Below the pieces are notes generated by a model, which did no database searches, was not told the DNA's origin, and was given only the letters and a program-made list of their open reading frames with translations. The translations under genes and the position numbers were made by a program. Below, in pieces: positions 47 through 18,948 of a stretch of DNA of 60,865 nt. The stretch comes from Terriglobales bacterium. Its GTDB lineage: Bacteria; Acidobacteriota; Terriglobia; Terriglobales; Acidobacteriaceae. The stretch spans positions 1 through 60,865 of the forward strand of contig JBAWAI010000584.1 of the NCBI GenBank assembly GCA_049589215.1. Reading direction: 5' to 3'. Position 1 is the first letter of the stretch, and the number at the start of each line of letters is the position of its first letter.

Positions 47-2170
47 TTATGTGCCACTCTTTCTGCGCGGATGCTTTGCGTGGGTCGTGTGGGTATGCGC
101 GGCGTGAGTGGCATGCGTTGTGTGGGCGTGCGTGGCGCGCGCGCTCTTGGCCTTGCGGCGAGCGGGCTCGCGAATGGATTGAACGCGGCCCTTGCCTTTT
201 GGGTGGGCCGCGGTCGCGTGGTTGGATTTGGTGGAGACCGCGTTCACGCGATGGCGAGGCCGTGCTGCGATCGTGTGAACCGTGTGGGCTGAAGTGCCAG
301 TCGTGGTGGAGCTGCTGGCCCCGCTGGAGGCACTTGTCATGCTGCGGCTGCTCGAGCTTCCTGACGCGGAGCTTCCGGCGGCTGCGGAGGCGGCTATGGT
401 GATGGGCTGGGCTTCCGCTTCGTCATTGCCGAACCAGAACTGGAGTTCGGCGAGGTTGTCTCCCGTCAGGTGGCCGGCTTGCCAGGTGTCATTATCTTCG
501 AGACCGTGCCAGAATTTCGGATCCTGACGATGGGCTTCGACGCTGCTGTTCCAGCGATAGGACTGGAAGGTTGCGATGATGTTGACGGCGTAGGCGGCGG
601 CCAATGGAGCGTTGCCTTCGATGATGACGAGATTGTCATCATTCTTGCTGGATGCCTTGAAGCCGAGATTATGCGATCCCGTCATGATCACCGGGTTGGC
701 TCCGAATGGATCGAGCACAATGACCTTGCTGTGGACGTGAACGCCCGCGCCGAGAAGCTCGGGCACCCATTTTGAATAGTTATTCTTGATGTTGGCCGGG
801 ACCATGACGTCATGGCCGAGACGCACGGGCGGCTCGATTCCGCTGTTGTAGAGCGCGACCGAGTGCGCAGGCGTGGTGGGATCCATACTGGCGGCCGGCG
901 GCTTTTTACCTTTGGCTGGAACGTTGTCTTCGGTGAGATACGGGATTTCCTGGTTGACGACACCCTTGATGTAGAGATTCGGGTTGTAGGTGGCGTTGTT
1001 GTCCTCGTGATGGCGATTGAGAATGTTCTGGAGGAGCGTCCACTTCTCAGGCTCATCGTCGGGTTGGAAGACGCCGGGATTGAAGAACAGGAAGAGGATG
1101 CCGTCTTTGGCGGCGTTGATAAGCTTGCGCGCGTAGTCGAGATCTTCGGCATGCTGGGTGGGAACGAACCAGGGCGTGATTTTGCAGCCATCGACCTGGT
1201 AAATGTTGCACTTGGAGTCGGCGGCGGCGAGGGTTGGAGGATAGGCGCTGCCGGCGGCCTGATAGCGATCCCAGGCGTCGAGGAAATCCTGAGCGACGGC
1301 GGCATCGTCGATGATTAATCCGTTGTTGGCCTGAGTGCAAAGGCCGGTGATGGTCCAGTTGGTGCTGCCGGTAAGGACCTGGAGCGGCTTACGATCGGCG
1401 TCGCAGACGACGACGAATTTATTGTGGGCGAAGTGGCCCTGAGGAACGAGCCGGTCGTAGACGCGGATTTTTGTTTTGAGAGTGGCGCGCACGGCCTTGT
1501 TCTCATCGTTGTCGGGCGGTTTGAAGGCGCCATTGGCGAGGATGAGATTGCAATCTTCGCCAAAGGCCTCGAGGGCGGCAATCAATTCGGGATCGTTGAG
1601 TTCATAAAGGGCGGCGAAGATTTTGCAGTTTTGTTTCTTGGCGTCTTCGAGCAGGGAGAGTATCTCGGGGCGCAACAAGCCGCTGAGTTCGTTGCGCAGA
1701 GGATTGCCGACGGTACCGATGATCTTTTTGATATTGGAACCTTTCGGAACCGTGCTCATGGCGCGCGAGACCCACTGCGCGGCGACGATTCCCTTATTGA
1801 AGTAGGAAGACAGGTGACCAGTGCATTGGCCAGTGATGCTTAGAATCGGCGTGATAGGGCTGGCCAGCTCTTCTTCCAGCGTGAGGTTGGTTTGGTCGGG
1901 CCCGACGACGGGCAGAATGCGATATTGGACGCTGTCGCCGGGCTGGACGCCGTAGTCCCACCACATGAATCGCTGGACCGGAAACTTCCACGGCAGATCG
2001 GCCGTATCTTTATCGGAGAATCCGACGAAGCCGTGGAGATAGTCAGTCTTGCCGGCGAGAGTGCGCTCAATGGCGAAGCCGCGACACCCCGGAATCGGCT
2101 TGCCGTCGGTGGGAATCCAGACCAGACAAGTGTGGTCGCCATTGTCGTAAACCTTCAGGTCGATACTCAT
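47..2170 (-). CDS. Phospholipase D superfamily protein (two HKD motifs) with a long Ser/Thr/His-rich low-complexity C-terminal tail
   Basis: 707-aa ORF. Two HxKxxxxD motifs (HNKFVVVCD followed by GSTNWT; HSKVIVLD followed by GSHNLG). No signal peptide. The last ~120 aa are low complexity. Confidence 0.8.
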   Translation of the reverse strand: MSIDLKVYDNGDHTCLVWIPTDGKPIPGCRGFAIERTLAGKTDYLHGFVGFSDKDTADLPWKFPVQRFMWWDYGVQPGDSVQYRILPVVGPDQTNLTLEEELASPITPILSITGQCTGHLSSYFNKGIVAAQWVSRAMSTVPKGSNIKKIIGTVGNPLRNELSGLLRPEILSLLEDAKKQNCKIFAALYELNDPELIAALEAFGEDCNLILANGAFKPPDNDENKAVRATLKTKIRVYDRLVPQGHFAHNKFVVVCDADRKPLQVLTGSTNWTITGLCTQANNGLIIDDAAVAQDFLDAWDRYQAAGSAYPPTLAAADSKCNIYQVDGCKITPWFVPTQHAEDLDYARKLINAAKDGILFLFFNPGVFQPDDEPEKWTLLQNILNRHHEDNNATYNPNLYIKGVVNQEIPYLTEDNVPAKGKKPPAASMDPTTPAHSVALYNSGIEPPVRLGHDVMVPANIKNNYSKWVPELLGAGVHVHSKVIVLDPFGANPVIMTGSHNLGFKASSKNDDNLVIIEGNAPLAAAYAVNIIATFQSYRWNSSVEAHRQDPKFWHGLEDNDTWQAGHLTGDNLAELQFWFGNDEAEAQPITIAASAAAGSSASGSSSSRSMTSASSGASSSTTTGTSAHTVHTIAARPRHRVNAVSTKSNHATAAHPKGKGRVQSIREPARRKAKSARATHAHTTHATHAAHTHTTHAKHPRRKSGT

Positions 2171-2246: not shown

Positions 2247-2552
2247 TCACGCCGTCTTCTTGGCCGGCACGGTATGTGGAGCAGTCTTCGTGTGCTTGCT
2301 TCGCTTGAAAATACCCAGCATGTTTTTCAGGTTGACGACCAGATCGATGGCGTTGCTGGTGGCACTCTTGAGCTGAGGAGCGTCAGAATTGGGTGCGGCC
2401 GTGGCCGCGATGTTGACCGCGTCCTGCAGGGCGGTCATGGCAGCGGCTTTCTTTTCATGGGAAGGGCTGGTCTGCAGAGTGTTCTCAACATCATTGACGG
2501 CGCCTACCACCTGGGTAAGCAGAGAAGCGACTTGATCGGTCTTGTCTGGCAT
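2247..2552 (-). CDS. Small hypothetical helical protein (101 aa) upstream of the PLD gene
   Basis: Internal ATG at 2552 is preceded by AAGGAGGA about 6 nt upstream on the minus strand. The longer ORF-track start at 2693 has no such site. No recognisable family. Confidence 0.55.
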   Translation of the reverse strand: MPDKTDQVASLLTQVVGAVNDVENTLQTSPSHEKKAAAMTALQDAVNIAATAAPNSDAPQLKSATSNAIDLVVNLKNMLGIFKRSKHTKTAPHTVPAKKTA

Positions 2553-2735
2553 AAATCCTCCTTGTTTGTGCGCGGCAACCGGTATCGATCGAGGAAGACC
2601 GACGTCGTTATTGCCGCTTTCAAGATGTAAAGCGTGGGTTTGGGGAAAAGCCCGCCACGTGAGACGGGGAAAAGGTGTAGGCGCATTTCCCACCTAGAGA
2701 TTTCGCAGGAGCAATCCGGGATAGGTTGTGCTAAT

Positions 2736-3350
2736 ATGCTCACCCAAGATGAGGCAGTTATGGCCGGGCCAGATGCAGAGATCACACGGCTATTGCATCG
2801 CTGGAAAAACGGCGACCAAGAAGCCGAAGCAAAGTTATTTGAACTGGTATTGCCTCAGCTGCGCCTGCTGGCCGCACGCTACCTGCGCCGGGAGCGGAGC
2901 GGGCACACCCTTCAGCCCACCGCTCTAGTCAACGAGGCGTTTCTTCGACTGGCCGCCGCCAAGAGCGTAGATTGGCGGGATCGCGGGCATTTTCTGGCTC
3001 TGGCCGCGAGAGTAATGCGCCGTTACCTGATCGACCATGCGCGCGCTCGTCCCGATGTGCATTTTCTGGCCCTGGAAGGTATTCCCGAATATGTATTGAG
3101 TAACCGCACCAAGCTGGAGTTAGTGGTGGCGGTGGATGAGTTACTCAATGAAATGGCGAAGGAGTTTCCACAACGGCGCTCAGTGGTGGAGCTTAAGTTC
3201 TTTCTCGGCTTGACAGATGAAGAAGCAGCAGATGCGCTAAGCCTGAGCCTGCATACCTTTCAGCGGGAGTGGTACCGGGCGCGCCGGTGGCTTTTTGAGC
3301 GATTGAGTACAAAGAAATGGAACGGAGTGTCGAAGGCGATCGGGGCTTGA
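2736..3350 (+). CDS. ECF-type RNA polymerase sigma factor of the kinase-associated class (TIGR02999-like, ECF43-like from memory)
   Basis: N-terminal signature ITRLLHRWKNGDQEAEAKLFELV...HTLQPTALVNEAFLRL and a region-4 HTH (LGLTDEEAADALSLSLHTFQREW). Start taken at ATG 2736 (MLTQDE); the upstream ORF extension looks non-coding. Confidence 0.85.
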   Translation: MLTQDEAVMAGPDAEITRLLHRWKNGDQEAEAKLFELVLPQLRLLAARYLRRERSGHTLQPTALVNEAFLRLAAAKSVDWRDRGHFLALAARVMRRYLIDHARARPDVHFLALEGIPEYVLSNRTKLELVVAVDELLNEMAKEFPQRRSVVELKFFLGLTDEEAADALSLSLHTFQREWYRARRWLFERLSTKKWNGVSKAIGA

Positions 3351-5998
3351 TGGAGCTGGTTGCGGCTGCGCTGCAACAACCGGCTGAGTTGCGCGAATCC
3401 TACCTATGCGACGCCTGCGGGGACAATACACAACTACTCCAGGACGCCACTGACCTGCTCAGGGGCGAAGAAGAGATGGGGTCTTTCCTGCTGCATCCCG
3501 CGATTGCATTTCAGGAATATCCACGCCCATTTCAATCGGGACAGACGGTGCTGGAACGCTTTGAGGTCACGCGCGAGATCGGGGAAGGCGGAATGGGGAT
3601 CGTGTATGAGGCCTTCGACCGGAAGGTGCACAAGCGGATTGCGATCAAGGCAGCAAAGCCGGGGTTTCAAACGCGACTGTCGCCGGAGATCGAAAGCGCG
3701 CTGGAGGTGACGCATCCGAATATTTGCCGGGTCAACGAAATCTACACCGCGCAGACGGAGCACGGCGAAGTTGATTTTCTGACGATGGAGTTTCTGGACG
3801 GGAATACGCTGACCTCTTATCTGGGAAGCGACGCGAAAATTCCGGAGGCGGAAGCGTTTGAAATTGCGCGCCAGCTTTGCGAGGGACTTGCGGAGGCGCA
3901 TCGCCGGGGCATTGTGCATCGCGATCTGAAGACCGGAAATGTAATCGTCTGCCGGAACCGCAAGAATGGACTGCGCGCGGTGATCACCGATTTTGGGCTG
4001 GCGGGAGCGGACACTCAGCCGTGCGAACTAGGCGGCACGCCAAGATACATCGCGCCGGAATTGTGGACCGGCGGGCAGGCGTCGAAGGCATCGGATATCT
4101 ATGCGCTTGGGATTATTCTTTGCGACATACTTACGCGCACGTCGCACGATTCGCAGCCGCTCAATGATTTTGCCAGCAAGCTTTCTTCGGGCTTCGCGCC
4201 CGAGGCGGACGATTCCGGTCCGAAGACATTATTAAAGGGAGTGCACGGGCGGTGGGCGCGGACGATTCTGCGTTGTGTCGATCCGCTACCGGAGCGGCGA
4301 CCGGCGGACGTGAGTGAAGTGATGGCGGGGCTGAAACCGCCGTCGCGATTGAGGCTGGTGCCTCTTTCGGTTGTGGTTGTGGCGCTGGCGGCGATGGCGT
4401 TCCCTGGTGTTCGCGGGCGAGTGCATGATGAGTTCTGGCCACCGCCAAGTGTGCGGCTGGTGGTGCTGCCCGCATCGGTTTCGGCGGGAATGAGGGTTGA
4501 CTCGGGCGGTGCTTTGCAGGACGCCTCAGACCGGATCTCGCATTTGACGGCGGAACGGCGCACGGTGGCGGTAATTCCGCCGTCGAAGGCGCGGGAGATG
4601 CAGATCCGAACTCCGGAACAAGCGCAGCAGCGCGTACACGCCACACACGCGCTAGAAACGACGATGCGCCAGGACGGCGACGATTGGGTAGTGACCGGCG
4701 CGGTCATCGATTTGCAGACGCAGAACCACCTGCGGGATTTTTCCGCGCGCTACTCGAAGACGACACTGGGAGCTTTGCCGGAAGCGCTGGCCGGCGAAGT
4801 ATCGAACGCACTCGACCTGCGCGGCAAACCGAGCGAAGTTATTTCGCCGGCGGCGACGGAATCTTACGATCGCGGACTTTATTATCTTCGCCCTGAATCG
4901 CGGAACGTGGATGAGGCGATCCGCGGATTTGAAGAAGCGAGCCGCCTTGATCCGCGGTCGGCGTTGCCGTTGGCCGGACTGGTGGAGGCCGAACTCGACA
5001 AGTTCGATGAGACGGGTGCGCCGGAGCATATGAAGCAGGCGGAAGCAAACCTGCAACTGGCGGAGAACCTTGATCCGGATGCGGTGAGCGTGCATCTGGC
5101 GTCGGGCTTATTTAACGAAGCCCGAGGACAAAACGCCCAAGCTATCGACCAGTACGAGCGGGTGGCTAACCTTGAGCCGCGGAATGTGTATGCTTTGATC
5201 CGGATTGCGGGCGTGTACGACAAAGAGAATATGCCGGAGCGGGCGATTACTACTTACCGGCAGGCGGTGAAACTGGATCCATCGTTTTACGATCCGCACG
5301 AATATTTCGGTGTGTTTTATTTTCATCGCGGCCGATATGAGGAGGCGGCGGAAGAGTTTCAGCGGGTGATCGACCTGGCGCCCGGAGTGTATAACGCATA
5401 CACGAATCTGGGAGCGTCGCTGGAAAAGTTGGGGAGGGTCGACGATGCGGTTAAAACGTTGCAGAGTTCGCTGGCGCTACGAGAGACGCCGCGAGCGCTG
5501 AACAATATGGGCGATCTCTTGTTTTCCAACACCCGGTTTGCGGAGGCGCTGACTTATTTGCAGCGGGCATCGGCGCTTACGCCGAACGATTACGTGATTT
5601 TGCTCAACCTCGGAGATACGAACCGTCATCTGGGAAACATGAAAGAGGCAAAAGCGGATTATCGAAAGGCGAAGACTTTCGCGTTGGCGGAATTGAATCA
5701 GAATCCGAGGAGTGGGTATCCACGGGCGGTGGTAGCTTACTCGTCGGCGCGCTTAGGAGATAAAAAGCGAGCCGAAGATGAGATTGGGCAGGCACTGCGA
5801 ACGGCTCCCGAGGACAATACGGTGATTCATCGCGCGGTGCTGACCTATGAAGTGCTGGGCTTGCGGGCGGAAGGGCTGACGGTGCTGAATGGGGCGACGC
5901 CCGACCTGCTGCGCAGCCTGGAAAAAGACCCCGACCTGGCGGACTTTCGCCAGGATTTACGCTTTAGACAGTTAGTGGGAAGAAATTCAACGCAGTAA
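3350..5998 (+). CDS. Hanks-type Ser/Thr protein kinase with one TM helix and a C-terminal TPR domain
   Basis: GEGGMGIVYEA, AIK, HRDLKTGN, DFG and GTPRYIAPE motifs. TM segment LVPLSVVVVALAAMAFPGV. TPR-like repeats in the C-terminal half. ATG 3350 shares its A with the sigma-factor TGA (TGATG); the alternative in-frame start is 3317. Confidence 0.9.
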   Translation: MELVAAALQQPAELRESYLCDACGDNTQLLQDATDLLRGEEEMGSFLLHPAIAFQEYPRPFQSGQTVLERFEVTREIGEGGMGIVYEAFDRKVHKRIAIKAAKPGFQTRLSPEIESALEVTHPNICRVNEIYTAQTEHGEVDFLTMEFLDGNTLTSYLGSDAKIPEAEAFEIARQLCEGLAEAHRRGIVHRDLKTGNVIVCRNRKNGLRAVITDFGLAGADTQPCELGGTPRYIAPELWTGGQASKASDIYALGIILCDILTRTSHDSQPLNDFASKLSSGFAPEADDSGPKTLLKGVHGRWARTILRCVDPLPERRPADVSEVMAGLKPPSRLRLVPLSVVVVALAAMAFPGVRGRVHDEFWPPPSVRLVVLPASVSAGMRVDSGGALQDASDRISHLTAERRTVAVIPPSKAREMQIRTPEQAQQRVHATHALETTMRQDGDDWVVTGAVIDLQTQNHLRDFSARYSKTTLGALPEALAGEVSNALDLRGKPSEVISPAATESYDRGLYYLRPESRNVDEAIRGFEEASRLDPRSALPLAGLVEAELDKFDETGAPEHMKQAEANLQLAENLDPDAVSVHLASGLFNEARGQNAQAIDQYERVANLEPRNVYALIRIAGVYDKENMPERAITTYRQAVKLDPSFYDPHEYFGVFYFHRGRYEEAAEEFQRVIDLAPGVYNAYTNLGASLEKLGRVDDAVKTLQSSLALRETPRALNNMGDLLFSNTRFAEALTYLQRASALTPNDYVILLNLGDTNRHLGNMKEAKADYRKAKTFALAELNQNPRSGYPRAVVAYSSARLGDKKRAEDEIGQALRTAPEDNTVIHRAVLTYEVLGLRAEGLTVLNGATPDLLRSLEKDPDLADFRQDLRFRQLVGRNSTQ

Positions 5999-6031
5999 AG
6001 CGTCACCACATTGAACCTAGGAGAGAAGACA

Positions 6032-6187
6032 ATGGCAGACAAGACAAAAGCGCACGGTCAGACGGATCCGATCGTGAAGCCAAATAACACGCAGCAGGCA
6101 AAACCTCTGACCGACCCGATCGTCAAGCCGAACAACCCTTCGGGAGCAACGGCGCAGACGCAGACAGATCCCATTGTTAAGCCGTAG
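6032..6187 (+). CDS. Unannotated 51-aa ORF encoding three TDPIVKP(NN) repeats
   Basis: GGAGAG lies 6 nt upstream of ATG 6032. Product is MADKTKAHGQTDPIVKPNNTQQAKPLTDPIVKPNNPSGATAQTQTDPIVKP. The three repeat copies differ only at synonymous codon positions. It falls below the 60-aa ORF-track cutoff. Confidence 0.6.
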   Translation: MADKTKAHGQTDPIVKPNNTQQAKPLTDPIVKPNNPSGATAQTQTDPIVKP

Positions 6188-6228
6188 GTAGATCGCGCGC
6201 GAGAACCCAGGGACAATTTACTTCGGCT

Positions 6229-6374: not shown

Positions 6375-7073
6375 TTAGATCGCGGCTGGCTCGTGTAGCT
6401 CTTGCAGTCGAGCGGCTAAGAACTTTAAATACTCTTCCATTCCTTCGCCGGTTTTTGCGGATAGTTTGAATACCGGCATGCCCGGACGAACGGCCTGGAT
6501 ATTTTTGTATGCGGTGTCCCAGTCGAATTCGACCGCGCCGGCTAAGTCGATTTTGGTGACGATGGCGATGTCGGCGCTGTTGAAGATGGTTGGGTACTTC
6601 AGCGGTTTGTCTTCGCCTTCGGTTACTGAAATGAGAACGAACCGGAGGTCTTCGCCTAAGTCGTACGACGATGGACAGACCAGGTTCCCGACGTTTTCGA
6701 TAAAGAGGAAATCGAGTTGGTTGAGATCCCACCGATCTCCTTGTTCTGCGGCGAGCGCGCTGTCGATCATGGCGGCTTCGAGGTGGCAGAGGGTGCCGGT
6801 GGTGATCTGCTTTACTGGGGCCTGGCTGCGCGCTAAACGTTGAGCGTCATTTTCTGTGGCTAGATCGCCAACCAGAGCGGCTACTCGAAAGTTCGGCCGC
6901 AGCAGGGTGAGAGTTTTTTCGAGGAATGCAGTCTTGCCAGAGCCGGGGCTGGAGACGAGGCTGACCACAAAAACTCCAGCGGCGTGAAAGCGATCGCGCA
7001 GGCCTCGGGCTATCACGTCATTTTGCTTGAGAACATTTTTGCGGACTTCGATCAAACGGGGTTCGGGGCGCAT
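6375..7073 (-). CDS. hypB: Hydrogenase nickel-incorporation GTPase HypB
   Basis: P-loop SSPGSGKT and HypB-like overall sequence. ATG 7073 is preceded by GGAGATAGAGGA. It overlaps the hypA 3' end by 22 nt. There is no His-rich or CxxCGC N-terminus. Confidence 0.9.
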   Translation of the reverse strand: MRPEPRLIEVRKNVLKQNDVIARGLRDRFHAAGVFVVSLVSSPGSGKTAFLEKTLTLLRPNFRVAALVGDLATENDAQRLARSQAPVKQITTGTLCHLEAAMIDSALAAEQGDRWDLNQLDFLFIENVGNLVCPSSYDLGEDLRFVLISVTEGEDKPLKYPTIFNSADIAIVTKIDLAGAVEFDWDTAYKNIQAVRPGMPVFKLSAKTGEGMEEYLKFLAARLQELHEPAAI

Positions 7074-7414
7074 TCCTCTATCTCCAAAGCGAACACTTCG
7101 AGTTCTTTGCCCTGCACGATTTGAGAGCAGGGAGTATTGCATTCCGAGCAACAAAATAACTGCAACGAGCTAAGCGGGCGCTGGGCCTGACATTTGGGGC
7201 AAAAGATCACTACCGGGATTACTTCGATGATTAGGCGCGAACCTTGCAGCGGAGTGTTTTCGCACGCCATTTCGTAACAGGAGAGTAAGGCTTCTTTGAC
7301 GACCCCGGAGAGGGCTCCTAGTTTGAGATGAACGGCGGTAATTTGCCCGCCGCGGCGATCGAGTTCTTCCTCGGCGAGTTCCACGATGCTCATCGCGATG
7401 GATAATTCGTGCAA
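7052..7414 (-). CDS. hypA: Hydrogenase nickel insertion protein HypA (TTG start)
   Basis: N-terminal MHELSI (the MHE nickel motif) fixes the TTG start at 7414. GGAGAG lies 5 nt upstream. Zinc site CPKC...CSEC. Confidence 0.9.
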   Translation of the reverse strand: MHELSIAMSIVELAEEELDRRGGQITAVHLKLGALSGVVKEALLSCYEMACENTPLQGSRLIIEVIPVVIFCPKCQAQRPLSSLQLFCCSECNTPCSQIVQGKELEVFALEIEECAPNPV

Positions 7415-7455
7415 TTGGACTCTCCGGGATTAAGGACCCTTGGTTACTCGACGCG

Positions 7456-7689
7456 TTAGTCGTTTACTATGCAGCCGTGACCTTGCCAACCTACCTGGAT
7501 TACTTTGCCATCTTCCACGAGGATGGGCACGGTGCGCTGGCCGCCCGAAATCTCTCGCATGCGAAGGCGGGCCCCCGGATCGGCTTCGACGTCATATTCC
7601 ACGAACTCGCTGCGCTTCCACTCGAGCCAGTCGCGCATTTCGCCGGTGTGAGGGCAACGGGCGGTCCCGAAGAGTTCGAGCTTAGGCAC
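7456..7689 (-). CDS. Glutaredoxin-like small thiol protein (single-Cys CPHT motif)
   Basis: 77 aa with a thioredoxin-fold pattern (LFGTARCPHT...TVPILVEDGKV). GTG start has GAGGA 8 nt upstream. It overlaps the SIS gene stop by 8 nt. Confidence 0.7.
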   Translation of the reverse strand: MPKLELFGTARCPHTGEMRDWLEWKRSEFVEYDVEADPGARLRMREISGGQRTVPILVEDGKVIQVGWQGHGCIVND

Positions 7690-8917
7690 GGGTGGAATCC
7701 TCGTGGTTCAACACCTCCAGCGATTCGCGGATGACGTGGTAGATCGAGGCCTGGACTTCCTGAATGCGGGGGATGTAGTCGCAGTTGACGACGATCGGAA
7801 AGTCGGCGAGGGCTTTACGCTTGATCTCGCCACCGTCGTAGCCGAGTAAGGCGATGGTCAACTGGCCGCGCTTGCGGGCCTCTTCGAGGGCCATGATGAT
7901 GTTGCGCGAGCCGCCGCTGGTGGAGATGCCGATGGCGATATCTTCGGGGCGAGCCTGCGCGATCAACTGACGCAGAAAAATTGCGTCGGTGCCGATGTCG
8001 TTGGCAACGGCCGTGATGTTGGCGGGCTCGAGGGAAAGCGAAACGGCGGGGATGGATCGATAGCCTGAGGGTGGGAGCACGCAATCGATGGCGAAATCGT
8101 TGGCGTCGGTGGCGGAGCCTCCATTGCCGAAGACGATGATTTTGCCGCCGAGGCGCAGCCGCTCGTGAATAGCGAGCGTGGCGGCGCTAATCTGTTCGGC
8201 TTCTTCACGAGCCACCTGCTCGCGAAGGCGAGTGTCATCGCGGACCTTCATCAGGATGGATGAGGCGACTTCGGCCGCCAGGTGCGTGGTTCCCTGCTTT
8301 GTCGTGCCGAGGAACGGATAGAGAAAGCCGGATTCGCCGACGTCGTGGCCGAGTTCGCGGTGTTCGAAAAATACGTGCACGGTTTCCCAGAGCGTGTGAT
8401 AGAGGATCTCGGTGAGTTCCTGGTGCATGAACGGGTCTTGCGTGGCCGCATCGGCCGCGTAGTCGCCTTCGAATCCGGGAAGAGCGAAGGTCATCGCGCC
8501 CCGGCTGCGGGCCTCCTGAAGCGTTGCCCAGACTTCGGGATCACCTTCGGGCGGCCCGAATCCCATGACGATGTCTTCGGGGCGGAGGATGGCTTCGATC
8601 CACGGGCGAAAGAGAACGGAGAGATCGAGCGCGGGGAGAGCTCGCTTGCCAACGATTACGGGATGAACGAACTCGACGGAAACATGTTGCGCGTCAGTGG
8701 TATAAGGACCGCGGCCAAAGGCGAGCAGACGGCCGCCGCGGAGAAAACGCTCGGACATTTCGCGGCAGGCCTCGGCGAGACGCGGCGCCTCACGCCCGAA
8801 GAAATGCTCGTAGAGCTGGTTGCGCTCGAGGAGACGCCCTTCGACGTGGCTGGCGAGTTTATAGACCGTTGCCATAGTGTTCGTCACGTGTTCGTCCGGC
8901 GATCTTGCGGCTAGCAA
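7682..8917 (-). CDS. Fused double SIS-domain (GmhA/phosphoheptose-isomerase-like) protein
   Basis: The C-terminal half has the canonical GNGGSATDANDFAIDC. The N-terminal half has a degenerate FGRGPYTTDAQHVSVEF at the equivalent position. Start is uncertain (TTG 8917 overlapping hypE, or ATG 8875). Confidence 0.75.
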   Translation of the reverse strand: MLAARSPDEHVTNTMATVYKLASHVEGRLLERNQLYEHFFGREAPRLAEACREMSERFLRGGRLLAFGRGPYTTDAQHVSVEFVHPVIVGKRALPALDLSVLFRPWIEAILRPEDIVMGFGPPEGDPEVWATLQEARSRGAMTFALPGFEGDYAADAATQDPFMHQELTEILYHTLWETVHVFFEHRELGHDVGESGFLYPFLGTTKQGTTHLAAEVASSILMKVRDDTRLREQVAREEAEQISAATLAIHERLRLGGKIIVFGNGGSATDANDFAIDCVLPPSGYRSIPAVSLSLEPANITAVANDIGTDAIFLRQLIAQARPEDIAIGISTSGGSRNIIMALEEARKRGQLTIALLGYDGGEIKRKALADFPIVVNCDYIPRIQEVQASIYHVIRESLEVLNHEDSTRA

Positions 8918-10041
8918 ATTCGCGGCAGGGGGTCGCCGACGAGCATATCTACGATTCGACTGCCACCGTAAAGGGTTGTCACGAGAACCGTGCCGGCGGG
9001 CTGTTCACGAACTTCGCCGATGACTTGCGCTTCACTTCCGCCGGGCGCGAGACACAAGGCGTTGATGGCGGCGTCGGCATAATCGGGCGAGACGACGGCG
9101 AGGAACTGGCCTTCATTGGCGATGTGCAAGGGATCGAGGCCGAGCAACTCGCAGGCGCCACGGACAGTATCGCGCACCGGGATCTGATCTTCAAAAAGGA
9201 CCATGCCGAGACCGCAGTCGCGCGCCAATTCGTTGAGCGAGGTCGCGGCGCCGCCACGAGTTGGATCGCGCATCCAGCGGATGCCAGGACCAGCGGCGCG
9301 AATGAGAGCTTCGACGAGCGGAAGCACGGAGCGAGTGTCAGAGCGAAGATCGGCTTCGAGATCGAGTTCGCCGCGCGCGAGCAGGATGGTAATGCCGTGA
9401 TCGCCGATCGGGCCAGAGAGAAGAATCCGATCGCCGACGCGGACAGAACGCGGATCAATCGTGACGCCGGGAAGGAGGCGGCCGATGCCGGTGGTGGCTA
9501 TGTACATGCGGTCGGCTTTGCCATGCTCGACGACTTTGGTGTCACCGGCAGCGATGCGAACACCGGCATCCTGCGCGGCTTTGGCCATGGCTCGAACTTC
9601 GGCTTCGAGAATCGGGGTGGGCAGTCCGGCTTCGAGAACGTAAGAGACGACGAGGGCTTCAGCGCGAGCGCCGGAGACGGCGAGGTCGTTGACGGTGCCG
9701 TTGACGGCGAGTTCGCCGATCGAACCGCCGGGGAAGGTGATGGGCTTTACGACAAAACTGTCGGTAGTGATGGCAATTTTCGCGCCGTCGATTTCGACAT
9801 GAGCAGCATCGCCGAGCGGGCCGGGAGAGTTCCCGAAAAAGAGAGGAGCGAAAAGACCTTCGACCAGTTTGCGGCTGGCTTTGCCGCCGGCTCCGTGAGC
9901 CATCTCGATCTGCGGGTCACGGAAGCGTATGCGAGGAGAATCGGCCAGCAGCGCGGCGGGAGCGGCCGGGTCGCTCAAGCTACCGAACTCAGACTCACCA
10001 TCACTGCCTTGCGATGTTCGTAGTTGTGATAGGCGGCGCAT
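8911..10041 (-). CDS. hypE: Hydrogenase maturation protein HypE
   Basis: IEMAHGAGGKA near the N-terminus and the C-terminal PRIC motif. Start is uncertain: it must lie upstream of 9903 because conserved sequence precedes that Met. Confidence 0.9.
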   Translation of the reverse strand: MRRLSQLRTSQGSDGESEFGSLSDPAAPAALLADSPRIRFRDPQIEMAHGAGGKASRKLVEGLFAPLFFGNSPGPLGDAAHVEIDGAKIAITTDSFVVKPITFPGGSIGELAVNGTVNDLAVSGARAEALVVSYVLEAGLPTPILEAEVRAMAKAAQDAGVRIAAGDTKVVEHGKADRMYIATTGIGRLLPGVTIDPRSVRVGDRILLSGPIGDHGITILLARGELDLEADLRSDTRSVLPLVEALIRAAGPGIRWMRDPTRGGAATSLNELARDCGLGMVLFEDQIPVRDTVRGACELLGLDPLHIANEGQFLAVVSPDYADAAINALCLAPGGSEAQVIGEVREQPAGTVLVTTLYGGSRIVDMLVGDPLPRIC

Positions 10042-11102
10042 GATCCTTCCGATGACACCATGAGTGCGCCGATAGGATGCTCAGGGGTGCACTCGCGCCC
10101 AAACAGTTTACACTGATGCGGTTTGAGCACACCTTTGAGGACTTCTCCACACTGCGCGGCTTGCGGGTCGGTCACCCGAATGCCGGGTACCTGGAAGCGT
10201 TGTTCGGCGTCGAACTCGGCATGCTTGTCGTTGATGCGAAGCGCCGACTGCGAGATGAACCCGAGGCCTCTCCACTCGAAGTACGGACGTAACTCGAACA
10301 CTTCGGCCATGGCTTTGAGGGCGGCGCGGTTGCCCTCCCAGGGAACTACGCGCTTGTATTGATTTTCGACTTTGGCCTCGCCGGCTTTCAGCTGACGCAG
10401 CAGCATGACGATGGATTGCAGCATGTCGAGCGGCTCGAAGCCGGAGACGACGATGGGCTTGCGCTCGTTGCGAGCGATCCACTCATAGGGACGACAACCG
10501 ATGACGGTGGAGACGTGGCCGGGACCGATGAAGGCGTCGAGGCGCATGTCGGGAGAATCGAGAATAGCCCGGATCGCGGGAATGATCGTGACGTGATTGC
10601 AGAAGACGGAGAAATTGTGAACGCCTTCGGAGCGGGCGCGCATCATGGTGAGAGCGGTGGAGGGCGCGGTGGTTTCAAAGCCGATAGCAAAAAACATAAC
10701 GTGCTTTTCGGGATTGAGGCGGGCGAGCTTAAGTGCGTCAGAGGGTGAATAGACGATGCGAACGTCCATGCCGCGGGCCTTGTGTTCAAGCGGGCTGCCG
10801 TGAGTACCGGGGACGCGCATCATGTCGCCGAAGGCGGCGAAGATAACGTTGGGGTCGCCCGCGACGGCGAGGCCGTCATCGATGCGGCCCATGGGAAGGA
10901 CGCAGACGGGGCAGCCGGGGCCGTGAATCAGTTCGATATTTTCCGGGAGGATATCTTTGAGGCCGAAGCGGTAGATGGCGTGAGTGTGACCGCCGCAGAC
11001 TTCCATCATGCGGTAATGGCGGTCGGTACCGGCGAGGCGACGGATTTCATCGGCGGTCTTTGAGATCAATTCGGGCTGGCGGAATTCGTCGACGAATTTC
11101 AT
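9975..11102 (-). CDS. hypD: Hydrogenase maturation protein HypD
   Basis: MKFVDEFR start, plus CGGHTHAI, GPGCPVCV, FAIGFETT and PGHVS motifs. ATG 11102 is chosen over the longer ORF-track start. Confidence 0.9.
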   Translation of the reverse strand: MKFVDEFRQPELISKTADEIRRLAGTDRHYRMMEVCGGHTHAIYRFGLKDILPENIELIHGPGCPVCVLPMGRIDDGLAVAGDPNVIFAAFGDMMRVPGTHGSPLEHKARGMDVRIVYSPSDALKLARLNPEKHVMFFAIGFETTAPSTALTMMRARSEGVHNFSVFCNHVTIIPAIRAILDSPDMRLDAFIGPGHVSTVIGCRPYEWIARNERKPIVVSGFEPLDMLQSIVMLLRQLKAGEAKVENQYKRVVPWEGNRAALKAMAEVFELRPYFEWRGLGFISQSALRINDKHAEFDAEQRFQVPGIRVTDPQAAQCGEVLKGVLKPHQCKLFGRECTPEHPIGALMVSSEGSCAAYHNYEHRKAVMVSLSSVA

Positions 11103-11154
11103 GCAGCTTGGCTCCGGGGTTCCGTACTGCACATCCGAGACTGCCGGGTAGGAT

Positions 11155-11433
11155 TCAATTGATATCCTCCAGCCCGTAGCCTCGAACTTCCTGCATTGCT
11201 CCGTCAATCTCTCCCAGCATTCTGAGAGTATCCATCTGGTCGGCGGCGTCCTGTTCGCTGATCTTGCTCATGGCGAAGCCGACGTGAACGAGCACCCAGT
11301 CGCCGCGCACGGGCTTATCGTCGGCCAAGAGACCAAGGTCGATTCTGCGGCGCACGCCGACTACCTCGACGACGGCAGAGTCCTGGTTGTCGGGAGAAAT
11401 CTCGACAATCTTTCCGGGTATGGCTAGACACAT
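11155..11433 (-). CDS. hypC: Hydrogenase assembly chaperone HypC/HupF
   Basis: MCLAIPGKIVEI N-terminus; 92 aa. Confidence 0.9.
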   Translation of the reverse strand: MCLAIPGKIVEISPDNQDSAVVEVVGVRRRIDLGLLADDKPVRGDWVLVHVGFAMSKISEQDAADQMDTLRMLGEIDGAMQEVRGYGLEDIN

Positions 11434-11475
11434 TCGGCATCCTCCGTCGTGGTTGAACTCATTTTGCGCTGCCGG

Positions 11476-12069
11476 TCAAGGTTGCTTCCTCGCTAAAATT
11501 GCGAAAGAGAGTTTTATTTCGTCTTTGAGTTTGACGGTGCCGCCAGCGGCGGTTACCGGCTGAATTTCATAATCGCTCAGGCGGACGGAAAAATCTCCGG
11601 ACGCGCGGAGCGTATCGCCGTTTATGGAGACCCGCGTGGAGACTGGTTGACCGCGCTTGACTCCGTGCATTGTGAGATCGCCGGCGAGCGCGACCCAGTA
11701 TTGGCCTTCTCCGGTTTTGCTGGCGATGACGCTGGAACACTCGTAGACGATATCGGGAAAAGAGTCGACTTCCAAAACCTCGTCGTGCATGCGACGGTTG
11801 ATTTCGTCGTGATCTTTAGCGCTGATATCGTCGGTATCGTTGAGAGATGCCGCGTGAATTATCATGCGCAGCGAACTTTGCTCGAGTGCGTCGGGATTGA
11901 GAAGGATTTCACCCTCGAAATCAGGGAGTTCGATGGTTGGACTGTGAGCGAACGCGGAAAGCATTCCGGCGGCAAACGCGCGCGCGGTAAAGGCACTCCC
12001 GTTGGTTTTAATCGAGTAGTGAAGCGTGGTTCCCTCCGGCGTTATCGCGGGTTCGGCAGCGTAATGCAC
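11476..12069 (-). CDS. YceI-like (polyisoprenoid/lipid-binding beta-barrel) protein, no signal peptide, paralog 1
   Basis: YceI-type C-terminal pattern (LTMHGVKR...ASGDFSVRLSDYEI...VKLKDEIKLSF). GTG start has GGGAGG 8 nt upstream. The N-terminus is not hydrophobic. Confidence 0.7.
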   Translation of the reverse strand: MHYAAEPAITPEGTTLHYSIKTNGSAFTARAFAAGMLSAFAHSPTIELPDFEGEILLNPDALEQSSLRMIIHAASLNDTDDISAKDHDEINRRMHDEVLEVDSFPDIVYECSSVIASKTGEGQYWVALAGDLTMHGVKRGQPVSTRVSINGDTLRASGDFSVRLSDYEIQPVTAAGGTVKLKDEIKLSFAILARKQP

Positions 12070-12113
12070 TGGAAAAACCTCCCGACAAAATGCTCCCGAA
12101 GAGAACTGCGGCT

Positions 12114-12683
12114 CTACTCCGGCTTGCGAGCGACTATGTAAAACGTAAATTTCAGCTCGTCCTGAAGCTTTAAAGAACCGCCGGCAATCGAGGCGATCCG
12201 AATGTCGTAATCGCTTTGCAACAGCGTGAACGTCCCAAAAACGCGAGCCGTATCAATCCCCATAGCCGCTTGAGCTTCGAAGCCTAAGTCGCTGGAAACT
12301 CCGTGCAGCATCAATCTACCACTCACCTTGATACGGTAAAGATCGTCTTTCAGTTTCTCAGCCGCTATGCCGGTGCTCTCGTACGCGACCTCCGGGAAAC
12401 GCTGCGTTTCCAGCACCTCCTTATTCATCACACGATGGATTTCGCGTCGATCGTCATCGCGTAACTCATCTAGAACTTCGAGGGATGCGGCTTTCACCCG
12501 GACCCGGAGAGAGGCATCCTGCAGCTTATTTGATGACATCTGAACCTCGCCCGTCCAATCGCGAATCGCAATCTTCGGGCTATGTGCGACAGCCGCGATC
12601 AGCCCGCTCGCGAAAGCCTGCACAACAAACTGGCTCGCCCTTGTATCAGCCGAGTAACAAATTCTGTCAGCACCGGTCGCCAT
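12114..12683 (-). CDS. YceI-like protein, no signal peptide, paralog 2
   Basis: Aligns by eye with paralog 1 (AFASGLIAAVAHSP / AFAAGMLSAFAHSP; LMLHGVS...TFTLLQSDYDI...LKLQDELKFTF). ATG 12683 has GGAGG 8 nt upstream; the ORF-track start 12737 lacks an SD. Confidence 0.7.
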   Translation of the reverse strand: MATGADRICYSADTRASQFVVQAFASGLIAAVAHSPKIAIRDWTGEVQMSSNKLQDASLRVRVKAASLEVLDELRDDDRREIHRVMNKEVLETQRFPEVAYESTGIAAEKLKDDLYRIKVSGRLMLHGVSSDLGFEAQAAMGIDTARVFGTFTLLQSDYDIRIASIAGGSLKLQDELKFTFYIVARKPE

Positions 12684-12768
12684 CGAAGTAACCTCCGGGC
12701 CCTGAGAATAACATGCAAAAGCAGTCCCGTAACTCATCCGATTAATGCGATCCGTCCTGACCAGCTTG

Positions 12769-12972
12769 TTACATCGAGCGTAACTTCAAGTAACGATCGA
12801 GATCAGGCAACGCGCCTTGAGCCAGATCTCCCAGGCCGAACTGGCCGAGATAGCGTTTCGCGATGGGATTGGAAAGAATCAGGCCCGCCCCGAAAACGAT
12901 AAGTGCCACACCGCTAAGCATGAAGAGCGTGTCTCTGTCACTGAAGTGACCGTCACCATTGTCCATTGCCAC
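12769..12972 (-). CDS. Small single-pass membrane protein (67 aa)
   Basis: AAGGAGA lies 5 nt upstream of the GTG start. One hydrophobic helix (LFMLSGVALIVFGAGLILS). The gene sits between operon neighbours with 27-31 nt gaps. Confidence 0.6.
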   Translation of the reverse strand: MAMDNGDGHFSDRDTLFMLSGVALIVFGAGLILSNPIAKRYLGQFGLGDLAQGALPDLDRYLKLRSM

Positions 12973-12999
12973 GGCAGTCTCCTTTTACCACTTGAGAAG

Positions 13000-13869
13000 T
13001 TACTGGGTTGAACAGTTACCGACTGAAGAGTTACCGACTGAACCAGACTTATGTTTGTACAGAACCTTGTCGATCAACGATTTTACGAGTTTCACTGCCA
13101 CATCCACTGCGGCCTCAACGGCCGCGCTGAGCCCCATCTGACCTTCTTCGCCGCCGAGAGTTTCAGGTTCGCAACCGACGAGCAGAATATTCTTGACTTC
13201 GATGTTCATTGCCCGGGCCATGCGAAGCACGCTCATCGGATTCATGGAGTGCGCTTCGACGGTGGCCGGCGCGGCTGCGGAATCGTCAAGCGATTTCAAG
13301 TCGGGCTCAATAACGGAAAGCGTGCCAGCGGGCTGGCCGTGGGGGCAGGCGTCGACCAGAATGGTGGTTTCGTAGCCATCCTGCAGAGCGTAAGCGAGAT
13401 CGAAGCCGCGAATGCCGAAGTCGGTGACGCAGACTTCCGCGGGAAGTTCGAGGGCGGCGAGACGGCGTGCAACTTCGACACCGAAGGCGTCGTCACCGAG
13501 GAAGATGTTGCCGATTCCGGCGACCAGGATCGTGGGCTTTTGGACGGTTGAGACCGGCGGAAACTGGTCGGGTGGGAGCGGCTCGACTTCTTCCGCATCG
13601 AAAAAGAAGCGATGACCGGGCTGGCGAAGCATGCCCATGTCGCGGCCGGGATCCTGATCGAGGACCACACAGACGTGCTGCTTGCCTTCGTAGTCCTGCT
13701 CGATGCATTCGATGGTGGCAATCTGACCGGCGAGGGCGATGTCCATTACATCGCCGCCTTTGCGGGGATGAAGACGCACGCGGGATCCCTGGCGGACTGC
13801 GACGCCGGAAATTTCGAGATGATCGAGAGGAGTTTTTTCTTCGAGGAGTTGCCATTCCCATTCATTCAT
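13000..13869 (-). CDS. [NiFe]-hydrogenase maturation endopeptidase (HupD/HyaD family) with a ~100-aa N-terminal extension
   Basis: Protease core ILVAGIGNIFLGDDAFGVEVA...DFGIRGFDLAYAL...ILVDA starts near residue 115. The N-terminal part is a separate domain. Confidence 0.8.
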   Translation of the reverse strand: MNEWEWQLLEEKTPLDHLEISGVAVRQGSRVRLHPRKGGDVMDIALAGQIATIECIEQDYEGKQHVCVVLDQDPGRDMGMLRQPGHRFFFDAEEVEPLPPDQFPPVSTVQKPTILVAGIGNIFLGDDAFGVEVARRLAALELPAEVCVTDFGIRGFDLAYALQDGYETTILVDACPHGQPAGTLSVIEPDLKSLDDSAAAPATVEAHSMNPMSVLRMARAMNIEVKNILLVGCEPETLGGEEGQMGLSAAVEAAVDVAVKLVKSLIDKVLYKHKSGSVGNSSVGNCSTQ

Positions 13870-14960
13870 TGGGCCTCCTCCTGGGTGGAAGCGGAATCGA
13901 CCGGGCGCAAACCGCGCAGCACGCCGTGGAGTTTCATGAACTGTTCGACGGGCATAGATTCGGTGCGTTCGAGCATCTGGCGGGCGCGCTCGTCGGACTG
14001 GCTCATCTCGCGTTTTTCTTCGTCGGTGAGGGTCATGATGCGGAGAGAGAGAATTTCGTCGATCTCGGTGCCGTCGAAGAGATCGCCTGCGCTTTCGGGT
14101 GCGATCTTGGGATAGTCGTAAAGGATGATGGGCGAGGAGAGCAACGTGTCGTATTGGCCCTCTTCACCAACGAGCACGGGCCATGCGCCGACGTTTTTGC
14201 AGTCGGCAACGAGGGCGGCGAGGTGGTCGGGTGGGGCGAACAGCGAAATGAACTTCCCGTGATGAACGCCGAGGACGGTATGAGTTGAAACGAGCGAGCT
14301 TAGCAGGGCGTTTTCGCGGCTCGTCCGATCGGCGTCGGCGAATGGAGTGCGGTTGCGTATGCAAACTGTGACCTTGAAAAGGCCGTCCGCAACGCGCTCG
14401 CAACGGGTCTCGATTACGCCGCGAAGTTCACTCTGGTCGCGGATTATCACGCCCGCGGCGAGGCCTTGCGCATCCTTGAGATATTCGAATTCGCGGCTTG
14501 CGGGAAAGAGGAATGACTGCGACAGCGGCTTTGGCACGAGCGCATCGAGATTCGAGAGCGGCAAGATCACTTCGCGCTCTACCGCTTCCTGCCAGGGCTG
14601 ATAGACACGCCCCTCCATTGTTAGTTTGTCGACAGGGTGGTAGTCAGGCTTTTCATTCGGCGGTAAGTCGCTGATGCGCGCTGTCAGTTGGCCGACTGAA
14701 CGGGCGACCAACTGGAGAAAGCGAACGCGAACCTCTAGCGCGGGCGTTGAACCGACCTCGGAGTCAGCTTCGACCAGGCATTCGGTCTGCATGGTCCAAG
14801 CCTCGGTGCCGTTTTGCGCTTCGCTGTAGGACTGTGGACAGATGACGCCGAAGTTCCAGCGCTGCTGATTTTTCACCGACGATGGTCGGTAGGGATAAAG
14901 CATGTATCCCTCGTAGAGCACGGCTTTCGCGATCTGATTGACGGTCGCGAGATTCATCAC
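13866..14960 (-). CDS. Conserved hypothetical protein of group 1h hydrogenase clusters
   Basis: 364-aa ORF with 4-nt overlaps to both neighbours. N-terminus LYEGYMLYPYRPSSVKNQQRWNFGV recalled from Hhy-type clusters. No known function. Confidence 0.7.
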   Translation of the reverse strand: MMNLATVNQIAKAVLYEGYMLYPYRPSSVKNQQRWNFGVICPQSYSEAQNGTEAWTMQTECLVEADSEVGSTPALEVRVRFLQLVARSVGQLTARISDLPPNEKPDYHPVDKLTMEGRVYQPWQEAVEREVILPLSNLDALVPKPLSQSFLFPASREFEYLKDAQGLAAGVIIRDQSELRGVIETRCERVADGLFKVTVCIRNRTPFADADRTSRENALLSSLVSTHTVLGVHHGKFISLFAPPDHLAALVADCKNVGAWPVLVGEEGQYDTLLSSPIILYDYPKIAPESAGDLFDGTEIDEILSLRIMTLTDEEKREMSQSDERARQMLERTESMPVEQFMKLHGVLRGLRPVDSASTQEEAQ

Positions 14961-16280: not shown

Positions 16281-16305
16281 GAGTTCACTTTTTCAATTTC
16301 AATAC

Positions 16306-16878: not shown

Positions 16879-16890
16879 GATGCTCCCTGT

Positions 16891-17000
16891 GGGACTAAAG
16901 CCCCCATCTTTGTTCGCTCTTTGGGGCACGACTAAAGTCGCGCCCCACCCAAAAGCTAGCCTGCAACACGGCTGAAGCCCGTGCGGCACCCAAAAGCTCC
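16891..17000 (-). repeat. Structured intercistronic spacer: two hairpins plus short direct repeats
   Basis: GGGGCACGAC-taaa-GTCGCGCCCC (16923-16946, one mismatch). CACGG-ctgaagc-CCGTG (16967-16983). GACTAAAG occurs twice and CACCCAAAAGCT occurs twice. Confidence 0.5.
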
Positions 17001-17113
17001 CAATCAACAAAATGGAGTGAGCGCGCAGTTTTCGATACGCCGGACGTAGTTACCTGAGCACCGGCGATTCCTAACTACTACTCCCCTCACTCCCGATCAC
17101 GCACGAAACCGAT

Positions 17114-18910: not shown

Positions 18911-18948
18911 GGAGGTCGCTCCTGTTCTTTTAGTGGAAATCGTTCAAC

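Follow-up and report, generated by a model that had tools for sequence, protein, structure and literature searches.

A kinase-adjacent small protein built of PIVKP repeats is the third gene of an ECF43-like sigma factor/Hanks kinase module in Terriglobales

The described systems closest to the locus reported here are the sigma factor/kinase pairs EcfP-PknT of Vibrio parahaemolyticus and EcfK-PknS of Xanthomonas citri. In both, the extracytoplasmic function (ECF) sigma factor, which is of the PF07638/TIGR02999 type, has a Thr in a Q-x-T-A motif in place of the acidic DAED motif, and the partner kinase connects a cytoplasmic Hanks domain through one transmembrane helix to extracytoplasmic tetratricopeptide repeats (TPRs). 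The Thr lies in region 2.2 (consensus QTTA) of these ECF43 sigma factors, EcfP and EcfK, and is phosphorylated by the cognate kinase (PMC13147305, PMC8999054). The 60,865-nt stretch of DNA analyzed here, referred to as the window (contig JBAWAI010000584.1 of the Terriglobales assembly GCA_049589215.1), contains a pair of this known kind, followed by a small open reading frame (sORF) encoding three TDPIVKP repeats. The sORF is the third gene of an ECF43-like sigma factor/transmembrane Hanks kinase module. The accounts of EcfP-PknT and EcfK-PknS consulted here include neither a third-gene peptide nor a promoter embedded in the kinase gene, whereas the window module and its relatives have a constant third gene (the repeat peptide, or a cupredoxin-like protein in paralogs) that apparently possesses its own promoter within the kinase gene. 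The PIVKP-repeat peptides constitute a previously undescribed family in Terriglobales. It is proposed tentatively, and with somewhat less than even confidence, that the sORF product is a disordered peptide with several motif copies, controlled by the sigma factor and acting on the neighboring kinase.

A first-pass annotation of the window had placed an ECF sigma factor and a Hanks-type Ser/Thr kinase with TPRs upstream of the sORF. Profile searches agree: the sigma factor matches PF07638 (E = 6e-39) and TIGR02999 (165 bits against a cut-off of 126), the kinase has a Pkinase domain (E = 1e-36) together with other Pfam and NCBIfam matches. The sORF is tied to the pair. Region 2.2 of the sigma factor, TLQPTALVNEAF, is invariant across 30 loci, and the protein lacks the acidic DAED motif and keeps the phospho-acceptor Thr. 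The kinase, whose gene overlaps the sigma gene by 34 nt, consists of an N-terminal extension, a kinase domain (residues 82–340), one transmembrane helix (~345–365), a TolB-like segment and TPRs (~513–890). This is the architecture of PknS, in which the TPRs are periplasmic (PMC13147305); because the TPRs of the window kinase also come after its single transmembrane helix, they are expected to be periplasmic as well, with residues ~366–893 forming the periplasmic domain and residues 1–340 the cytoplasmic part. Mimicry of the sigma phosphosite by the peptide (QPTALV versus QTDPIV) was considered and dropped, as the sigma motif stays unchanged with every kind of third gene and shows no co-variation with it.

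Translation yields the 51-aa, 5.4-kDa product with three TDPIVKP copies that had been annotated at first pass, and its ATG is indeed located 33 nt past the kinase stop codon (5996–5998) behind a GGAGAG Shine-Dalgarno-like sequence, which is kept in the close clade and replaced by purine-rich equivalents at more distant loci. The repeats had been said to differ only synonymously, and all 14 pairwise differences among the three 21-nt copies fall at third-codon positions; at least 8 substitutions are required between the copies, every one of them synonymous (P ~1.7e-5, given that ~25% of random single changes in these codons are synonymous). The (T)DPIVKP motif occurs nowhere else in the window in a six-frame scan. 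Comparison of the sORF with close relatives gives a ratio of nonsynonymous to synonymous substitution rates (dN/dS) of 0.09–0.18 at a dS of 0.28–0.53, similar to that of the kinase gene (dN/dS 0.09, dS 0.50–0.59); position and reading frame are kept in relatives, and the sORF frame is the only one open across all 12 loci. Relatives of the sORF have already been called as genes ("hypothetical protein") in JGI, ENA and Logan data. The sORF is a genuine small-protein gene in which selection acts on the peptide. Two other explanations of the region were discarded: an antisense ORF at 6058–6216, which is interrupted in 4 of the 12 loci, and a known RNA family or RNA-level repeat, for which Rfam gave no match and with which the restriction of the repeat differences to third positions does not agree. 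The peptide has no match in Pfam, NCBIfam or PDB sequences, no literature match to the PIVKP motif was found, and a library-wide profile search returned only the PIVKP family itself and eukaryote-like low-complexity repeats. The genomes closest to the window are metagenome-assembled genomes of Acidobacteriaceae/Terriglobales.

The sORF peptide is hydrophilic, with a grand average of hydropathy (GRAVY) of −0.99, a highest 11-residue value of −0.17, and neither Cys nor Trp, in line with the first-pass statement that it has no signal sequence or hydrophobic segment. AlphaFold predicts no secondary structure (predicted template modeling score, pTM, 0.14), and as modeled the product is an intrinsically disordered hydrophilic peptide. 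In the window the kinase and the sORF share a reading frame, with one TAA and 11 sense codons between them (5996–6034), an arrangement also present in L001 (related loci are cited by such numbers where they must be told apart). A read-through kinase-sORF fusion was dropped as a candidate and is unlikely to matter, because the shared frame is not kept in L007, L008 or L043. In locus L043, the stretch from the kinase stop to the Shine-Dalgarno sequence of the sORF is lengthened by an insertion of ~60 nt, composed of tandem GTCGTCACTGCGGT(G/A)A-like units.

Kinase-adjacent TDPIVKP-repeat sORFs were sought in relatives by protein searches and kinase-based genome and metagenome scans, then by a further protein search with contig look-ups, and a family with a conserved reading frame was found, with orthologs in the same position in L001–L008, L043 and L123–L131. 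Seventeen peptides were compared, from loci whose kinases are 53–100% identical to that of the window; 14 are of the PIVKP/DIVKP type, several of these being near-identical close relatives. They are 43–62 aa long and always start 11–82 nt 3' of the kinase stop, though the genes further downstream differ. The window clade (L001, L008 and L043, kinase identity 90–100%) carries 3 x TDPIVKP, as do L123 and L124 (77–81%), in which the spacers are quite different. Other members carry TEPIVKP plus TDPIVKP (L007, 64%), 4 x DPIVKP (L125, 62%), 5 x DPIVKP with three back to back (L127, 60%), 2 x QDIVKP (L126, 61%), 2 x GEPIVKP (L130, 59%), 2 x GQPIVKP (L128 and L131, 57–58%) or 2 x GQPIVRP (L129, 58%), and the peptides of a sister group (L044, L058 and L132, 53–56%) end in ...DVKP, ...DVQP and ...GVHPN. 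PIV[KR]P is invariant within the PIVKP clade, whereas copy number (2–5), spacers (1–20 aa), N-terminus and length all vary. Since only [D/E/Q]-P-I-V-[K/R]-P is conserved across relatives, this is taken as the selected unit. In 11 of the 14 PIVKP/DIVKP-type peptides, near-identical close relatives counted, the last motif residue is also the last residue of the protein. None of the 17 peptides contains a hydrophobic stretch or Sec signal peptide (maximum 11-residue hydropathy ≤0.9), and the family peptides have no transmembrane segment, no double-glycine leader and no conserved cleavage site flanking the motif cores.

The family bears directly on the first-pass proposal that TxxI in each repeat resembles docking motifs of forkhead-associated (FHA) domains, by which the kinase would phosphorylate the peptide as a multivalent substrate and an FHA-domain protein would be drawn to its phospho-Thr (pTxxI). 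T-D-P-I occurs three times in the window peptide and again in L001, L008, L043, L123/124 and L007, and a hydrophobic +3 residue is in keeping with the preferences of many Hanks kinases. Across the family, however, the residue in this position may be T, G, K, D or A: Thr is absent from all four copies in L125 and all five in L127, which carry K/D/A/G-DPIVKP, and from L126 and L128–L131, the last four of which carry G-[EQ]-PIVKP-type units. The motif Thr is thus specific to the closest sub-clade, and the phospho-Thr idea fails because this residue is not conserved; a Pfam scan of 38 window ORFs, itself non-exhaustive, also revealed no FHA gene. This explanation is considered highly improbable. 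What stands of the first-pass interpretation is a real, peptide-selected gene tied to the sigma/kinase pair; the FHA docking motif does not. The other two first-pass suggestions, a TPR-domain ligand and a repeated-core precursor, are plausible candidates, with evidence on both sides.

An ECF-promoter-like element is located in the last codons of the kinase gene (Table 1). ECF promoters have a GGAAC-like −35 and a CG-rich −10 element, and the motif, read as TGGCGG(R)CTTT-N12-ACGCTT, resembles this general consensus. The window contains 3 matches against 0.64 expected. In its fixed-spacing form, TGGCGG-N17-CGCTT, the motif falls within 60 nt of the end of the kinase ORF, and a match 35–60 nt before the kinase stop is present in 50 of the 74 unique 3' ends of kinase genes compared. 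Codon choice within the element is strongly skewed relative to the rest of the kinase genes: TTA accounts for 37 of 46 Leu codons (4% elsewhere), AGA for 15/15 at one Arg (background 5%), GCG for 52/54 Ala (36%) and CGC for 53/57 at another Arg (38%), and one codon is fixed as NGC while its residue switches among R, S, C and H. The amino acid motif over the element is PDLADF-x-x-D-x-RF-x-x-LV. This part of the kinase gene is under nucleotide-level, synonymous-codon constraint. An alternative reading of the element is as an RNA hairpin, CCUGGCG-GACUUU-CGCCAGG.

Parsimony and the resemblance to ECF promoters decided in which orientation the motif is read. The opposite reading, AAGCG-N17-CCGCCA, which entails an autoregulatory and an antisense promoter, was replaced by TGGCGG-N17-CGCTT because every copy then sits upstream of a gene. 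The genes 3' of the copies are the third gene of the module, a divergent small gene with the PLD-like operon, and 654-aa genes in L129 and L131; the motif also precedes large downstream genes in L001-6 and L007. L127 has no divergent gene and no copy of the motif upstream of its sigma gene. The further copies lie 35–97 nt upstream of the divergent small genes or 654-aa genes, and at varying distances from PLD-like and large secreted-looking genes, and together they outline a candidate regulon. Matches inside the sigma coding region (DWRDRGHFFAL, e.g., L046 4085) may be coding-chance products. A separate ECF-type promoter within the kinase gene, with a predicted transcription start near 5972, probably drives the sORF, and the cognate sigma factor probably serves this promoter, in which case the sORF would be co-regulated with the PLD-like operon.

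In paralogous modules the slot occupied by the sORF contains a different gene. One such gene, here termed fam110, encodes a 100–120 aa protein that starts 2–20 nt past the kinase stop in ~45 loci whose kinases are 41–57% identical. The fam110 proteins have no Pfam or NCBIfam match and no signal peptide. An AlphaFold model (predicted local distance difference test, pLDDT, 85) shows an all-beta sandwich whose best, weak PDB matches are pseudoazurins and cupredoxins (TM ~0.5). The protein is folded, leaderless and presumably cytoplasmic. In a neighbor-joining kinase tree the sORF clade nests inside the fam110-bearing kinases, and fam110 genes are preceded by the same embedded promoter-like motif. 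Locus L045, whose kinase groups with the fam110-type kinases in the tree, has instead a kinase-adjacent 49-aa sORF with 2 x GEQRPGK.

By eye, the C-terminal strand of fam110, GG[DN]xIV[KR] or GGDHDVKP, resembles PIVKP. This likeness and the nesting of the sORF clade would suit an explanation in which the protein itself is non-functional, either as the decaying remnant of an ancestral third gene or as an ORF with a translation-only role (cis-acting, mRNA stabilization). The resemblance is not significant: hhalign gives a probability of 0.1%, hmmsearch with fam110 finds no match in the sORF loci, and a position-specific scoring matrix of the fam110 tail gives p ~0.34 for the window peptide and ~0.01 uncorrected at best. 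The resemblance is accordingly treated as a lead only, and descent of the sORF from the fam110 tail, which in the model is a structural beta-strand, was not supported. Amino-acid-level purifying selection on the motif across a divergence at which dS is saturated, duplication of the motif up to 5 times, and the lack of any downstream gene consistently there to be regulated also argue against a non-functional product, which is given very little chance of being correct.

The preferred reading is that of a peptide acting on the kinase. The sORF would be transcribed from the promoter within the kinase gene's last codons, and since the syntenic PLD-like operon has the same motif in front of it, the pathway would have the peptide as one of its outputs, produced once phosphorylation by the kinase has activated the sigma factor. 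The PIVKP motif would then serve as a binding epitope for the neighboring kinase and feed back on signaling, with several copies raising dose or avidity. The docking site narrowly favored lies on the TPR sensor domain of the kinase, in its concave groove, for which the peptide, or fragments ending in PIVKP, would be a self-made ligand. Both binding to the kinase and the side of the membrane on which it would occur are inferred.

The case for the TPR groove comes in part from the kinase itself. TPR registers were assigned by hand, with positions 2, 5, 6, 9, 12 and 13 of each repeat predicted to face the concave groove. Mean entropy at these groove positions is 0.57 in the PIVKP clade and 1.56 in fam110-type kinases, compared to 0.41 and 0.78 at core positions and 1.00 and 1.54 at all others; the gap between the two sets of kinases is larger at the groove than at other non-core positions (permutation p = 0.003). 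The conserved predicted groove set consists of D659, E662, Y663, V666, F669, H670, N693, T696, N697, A700, E703, K704, R726, N729, N730 and S737, of which K704 replaces the acidic residue, Asp or Glu, of fam110-type kinases. L126, the only lineage with a Pro-less motif (QDIVKP), is also the only one to alter T696, K704 and S737. Such conservation fits a conserved ligand, for which PIVKP would be the obvious encoded candidate. The C-terminal placement of the motif with its free carboxylate, the fast change in copy number and the tandem units are likewise in keeping with a TPR ligand or its precursor, as is, by analogy, the precedent of peptides encoded beside TPR receptors.

Several observations weigh against this reading. 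The peptide has no signal peptide, transmembrane segment or double-glycine leader, though the TPRs should be periplasmic, and this want of an export signal speaks against a target in the periplasm; among the window ORFs scanned, none nearby encodes an exporter, peptidase or modifying enzyme. The fam110 protein in the same slot is leaderless and presumably cytoplasmic, which favors the cytoplasm as the place where the third-gene product acts. The conservation of the groove may simply reflect the comparison of orthologs (the PIVKP clade) with paralogs, motif/groove co-variation rests on single lineages, and promoter function and sigma dependence are deduced from sequence. Given the evidence for a TPR ligand on one side and the missing export route on the other, commitment is made only to a motif peptide acting on the kinase, with a slight lean toward the TPR groove.

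In its full form, the TPR-ligand proposal would have the leaderless PIVKP peptide, made by the cell itself, bind the periplasmic TPR sensor of a Hanks kinase whose phosphorylation of an ECF43 sigma factor activates that factor, a scheme regarded as unlikely. It would represent a peptide/Ser-Thr kinase/sigma-phosphorylation autoinduction circuit in Acidobacteriota, in which PIVKP-COOH would be held by a carboxylate-clamp-like groove (K704, R726, N697, N729/730) and expression of PLD-like and other effector genes would be turned on as a result. One variant is a "kin-lysis danger" circuit, in which the peptide would be freed by an unconventional route or by cell lysis.

A cytoplasmic partner offers a different account of the same peptide: its PIVKP motifs would bind the N-terminal extension or kinase domain of the kinase, the sigma factor, or RNA polymerase, for instance bridging two or more kinase molecules or acting as a decoy, in a role equal to that of the cupredoxin-like third-gene protein. 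The absence of an export signal, the leaderless and folded fam110 protein in the same slot, and the presence of at least two motif copies in every PIVKP-type peptide are all consistent with this, and clade-specific substitutions occur in the cytoplasmic part of the kinase too (e.g., W50G, L138R, S197R and D314A). Copies spaced by one residue (L125, L127) would nevertheless be difficult for several bulky domains to occupy together, the consistent C-terminal position of the last copy is left unexplained, Pfam and NCBIfam recognize no known peptide-binding domain in the cytoplasmic part of the kinase, and hhalign shows no similarity between the sORF and fam110. This account is doubtful, yet a serious possibility.

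The variation in copy number also suits a multi-core precursor whose released product has no action on this kinase and is a mere output of the sigma regulon, such as a signal for another receptor, an antimicrobial, or a compound like a ribosomally synthesized and post-translationally modified peptide (RiPP) whose enzymes are encoded elsewhere. Kinases 72–77% identical to one another are accompanied by peptides with 2, 4 and 5 copies, some units are tandem with the core alone conserved, and the promoter motif is common to effector-looking genes (PLD-like, Tle1-like and large secreted-looking proteins). In the more distant Bryobacterales relatives, the third gene bears repeats as well, and a gene for a papain-like C70/C39_2 peptidase comes after it. 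Within the PIVKP clade, by contrast, no leader, signal peptide, peptidase, transporter or modifying enzyme is present near the gene and no conserved cleavage site adjoins the cores, and the strict linkage to the kinase gene is not accounted for. A released product is considered quite unlikely here. The Bryobacterales third genes are of two types, an sORF with a Lys-rich N-terminus and 2-3 x S(S/A)AGPIGPGG, and a protein of 116-140 aa that carries 2 x GGDAPVDGPG; in either case the Peptidase_C70/C39_2 gene and a 206-225 aa gene without assigned function come next. Repeat-bearing third genes are thus a recurrent theme in these modules, and those of Bryobacterales may be processed, as a peptide-processing variant of the module.

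Table 1. Coordinates of the features discussed, in the window unless a related locus is named.
Feature	Position	Strand	Details
PIVKP-repeat small protein gene (sORF)	6032..6187	+	51 aa plus stop, translation MADKTKAHGQTDPIVKPNNTQQAKPLTDPIVKPNNPSGATAQTQTDPIVKP*
Repeat 1 TDPIVKP	6062..6082	+	ACG GAT CCG ATC GTG AAG CCA
Repeat 2 TDPIVKP	6110..6130	+	ACC GAC CCG ATC GTC AAG CCG
Repeat 3 TDPIVKP	6164..6184	+	ACA GAT CCC ATT GTT AAG CCG; stop codon directly after
Shine-Dalgarno-like GGAGAG	6020..6025	+	6 nt 5' of sORF ATG
ECF-promoter-like element TGGCGGACTTT-N12-ACGCTTTA	5937..5966	+	Within kinase's last codons; pattern match
TGGCGG-N17-CGCTT form of the element	5937..5964	+	
Second promoter-like copy	2630..2657	-	Upstream of sigma gene; ~78 nt before divergent 101-aa gene start
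ECF43-like sigma factor	2736..3350	+	204-aa reading; PF07638, TIGR02999
Hanks-type Ser/Thr kinase	3317..5998	+	893 aa
Long stem-loop	6211..6269	+	24 nt past sORF stop
Divergent 101-aa gene	2250..2552	-	Syntenic with module in PIVKP clade
PLD-like gene	47..2170	-	PLDc_2 match; syntenic with module in PIVKP clade
Hydrogenase maturation cluster	6375..20013	-	Convergent with sORF
Second small-subunit-like gene	22851..23870	-	
Further promoter-like copies, L129	3645-3672, 4265-4292		
Further promoter-like copies, L131	2636-2663, 3266-3293		
Further promoter-like copy, L001	7422-7449		
Further promoter-like copy, L007	8356-8383		
fam110, L009	8664-9008		
fam110, L015	8638-8979		
Bryobacterales-type locus, L039	8653-8826, 8890-9408		
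Bryobacterales-type locus, L122	6831-6983		
Bryobacterales-type locus, L082	4421-5314		
Bryobacterales-type locus, L023	8654-9578		
Kinase-adjacent sORF, L045	4574-4723		49 aa
Insertion before sORF, L043	3045-3110		
PLD-like/T6SS_Tle1-like neighborhood, L007	774-1826		
PLD-like/T6SS_Tle1-like neighborhood, L126	1331-2422		

The stem-loop following the sORF lies in a region (6185–6275) with a minimum free energy of −46.2 kcal/mol (z = −3.7). It has no T-tract and no Rfam match, and its sequence is kept in the close clade despite differing downstream genes; it is the probable 3' end of the sORF transcript. Upstream of the module, tblastn detected the PLD-like gene at 66–91% identity in L001-4, L007, L008, L104, L126 and L128–L130, that is, in most PIVKP-clade loci having enough upstream sequence, and at none of the fam110-type loci. 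As this gene is found upstream of PIVKP loci and of no others, the PIVKP loci are considered orthologs. The PLD-like protein has a His/Thr/Ala-rich low-complexity C-terminus, and in two relatives its gene adjoins a T6SS_Tle1-like lipase gene. EcfK, an ECF43 sigma factor, controls a type VI secretion system (T6SS) in Xanthomonas, and the Tle1-like neighbor hints at an effector-like regulon. Downstream of the sORF, the window and L008 have a hyp/hydrogenase cluster; other relatives have housekeeping genes there or genes for large secreted-looking proteins. In the window this cluster comprises hypB, hypA, a SIS-domain gene and hypE- and hypD-like ORFs, with ORFs resembling by eye the [NiFe]-hydrogenase large and small subunits after the hyp genes, and a second small-subunit-like gene beyond; the Pfam check in this region covered hypA, hypB, the SIS gene and the second small-subunit-like gene.

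The identity of the third-gene product is of interest on either side of the membrane. The accounts consulted of the ECF43-associated Hanks kinases PknT and PknS name no ligand for the sensor domain, and the family described here supplies a candidate, a six-residue peptide encoded beside the sensor and conserved along with its predicted groove. Should the peptide instead act in the cytoplasm, it would be a third component of sigma-phosphorylation modules, missing from current descriptions, and a clear case of a bacterial small protein that functions wholly through a repeated short linear motif. The embedded promoter-like element, for its part, would show which genes make up the regulon of a paralog family that is very large in soil Acidobacteriota and has hardly been studied.

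Among known systems, TPR receptors are able to bind short peptides encoded beside them, sometimes in tandem copies (PMC11343458). The RRNPP(A) propeptides (Phr, NprX, PapR) resemble the sORF in being encoded by a small ORF directly 3' of the TPR-receptor gene and in carrying the active short peptide in their C-terminal part, possibly in several copies (PMC11343458), and the NprX peptide, SKPDIVG, is similar in chemistry to the PIVKP motif. They differ in that the propeptides have Sec signal peptides and are cut outside the cell, whereas the sORF peptide has no such signal; their receptors are cytoplasmic Bacillota regulators (of the helix-turn-helix or phosphatase kind) that bind the re-imported peptide, unlike the candidate receptor of the sORF peptide, an Acidobacteriota membrane Hanks kinase with a presumably periplasmic TPR domain. 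The 2–5 copies of a [DEQ]PIV[KR]P core recall a multi-core RiPP precursor, but no modifying enzyme, leader peptidase or transporter neighbors the gene in the window or among the called genes of 12 related loci. Within the paralogous modules, fam110 is similar to the sORF in its place directly after the kinase stop and in its embedded promoter-like motif, and differs from it as a folded 100–120 aa all-beta domain without detectable homology. The small protein MgrB, which acts on PhoQ, offers a possible functional parallel, and the sORF likewise encodes a peptide of ~50 aa alongside its pathway, which may be induced by that pathway and is a candidate for feedback on the sensor kinase. Proteins of the MgrB type are membrane-inserted and repeat-free, whereas the sORF peptide is soluble, disordered and built of repeated motifs.

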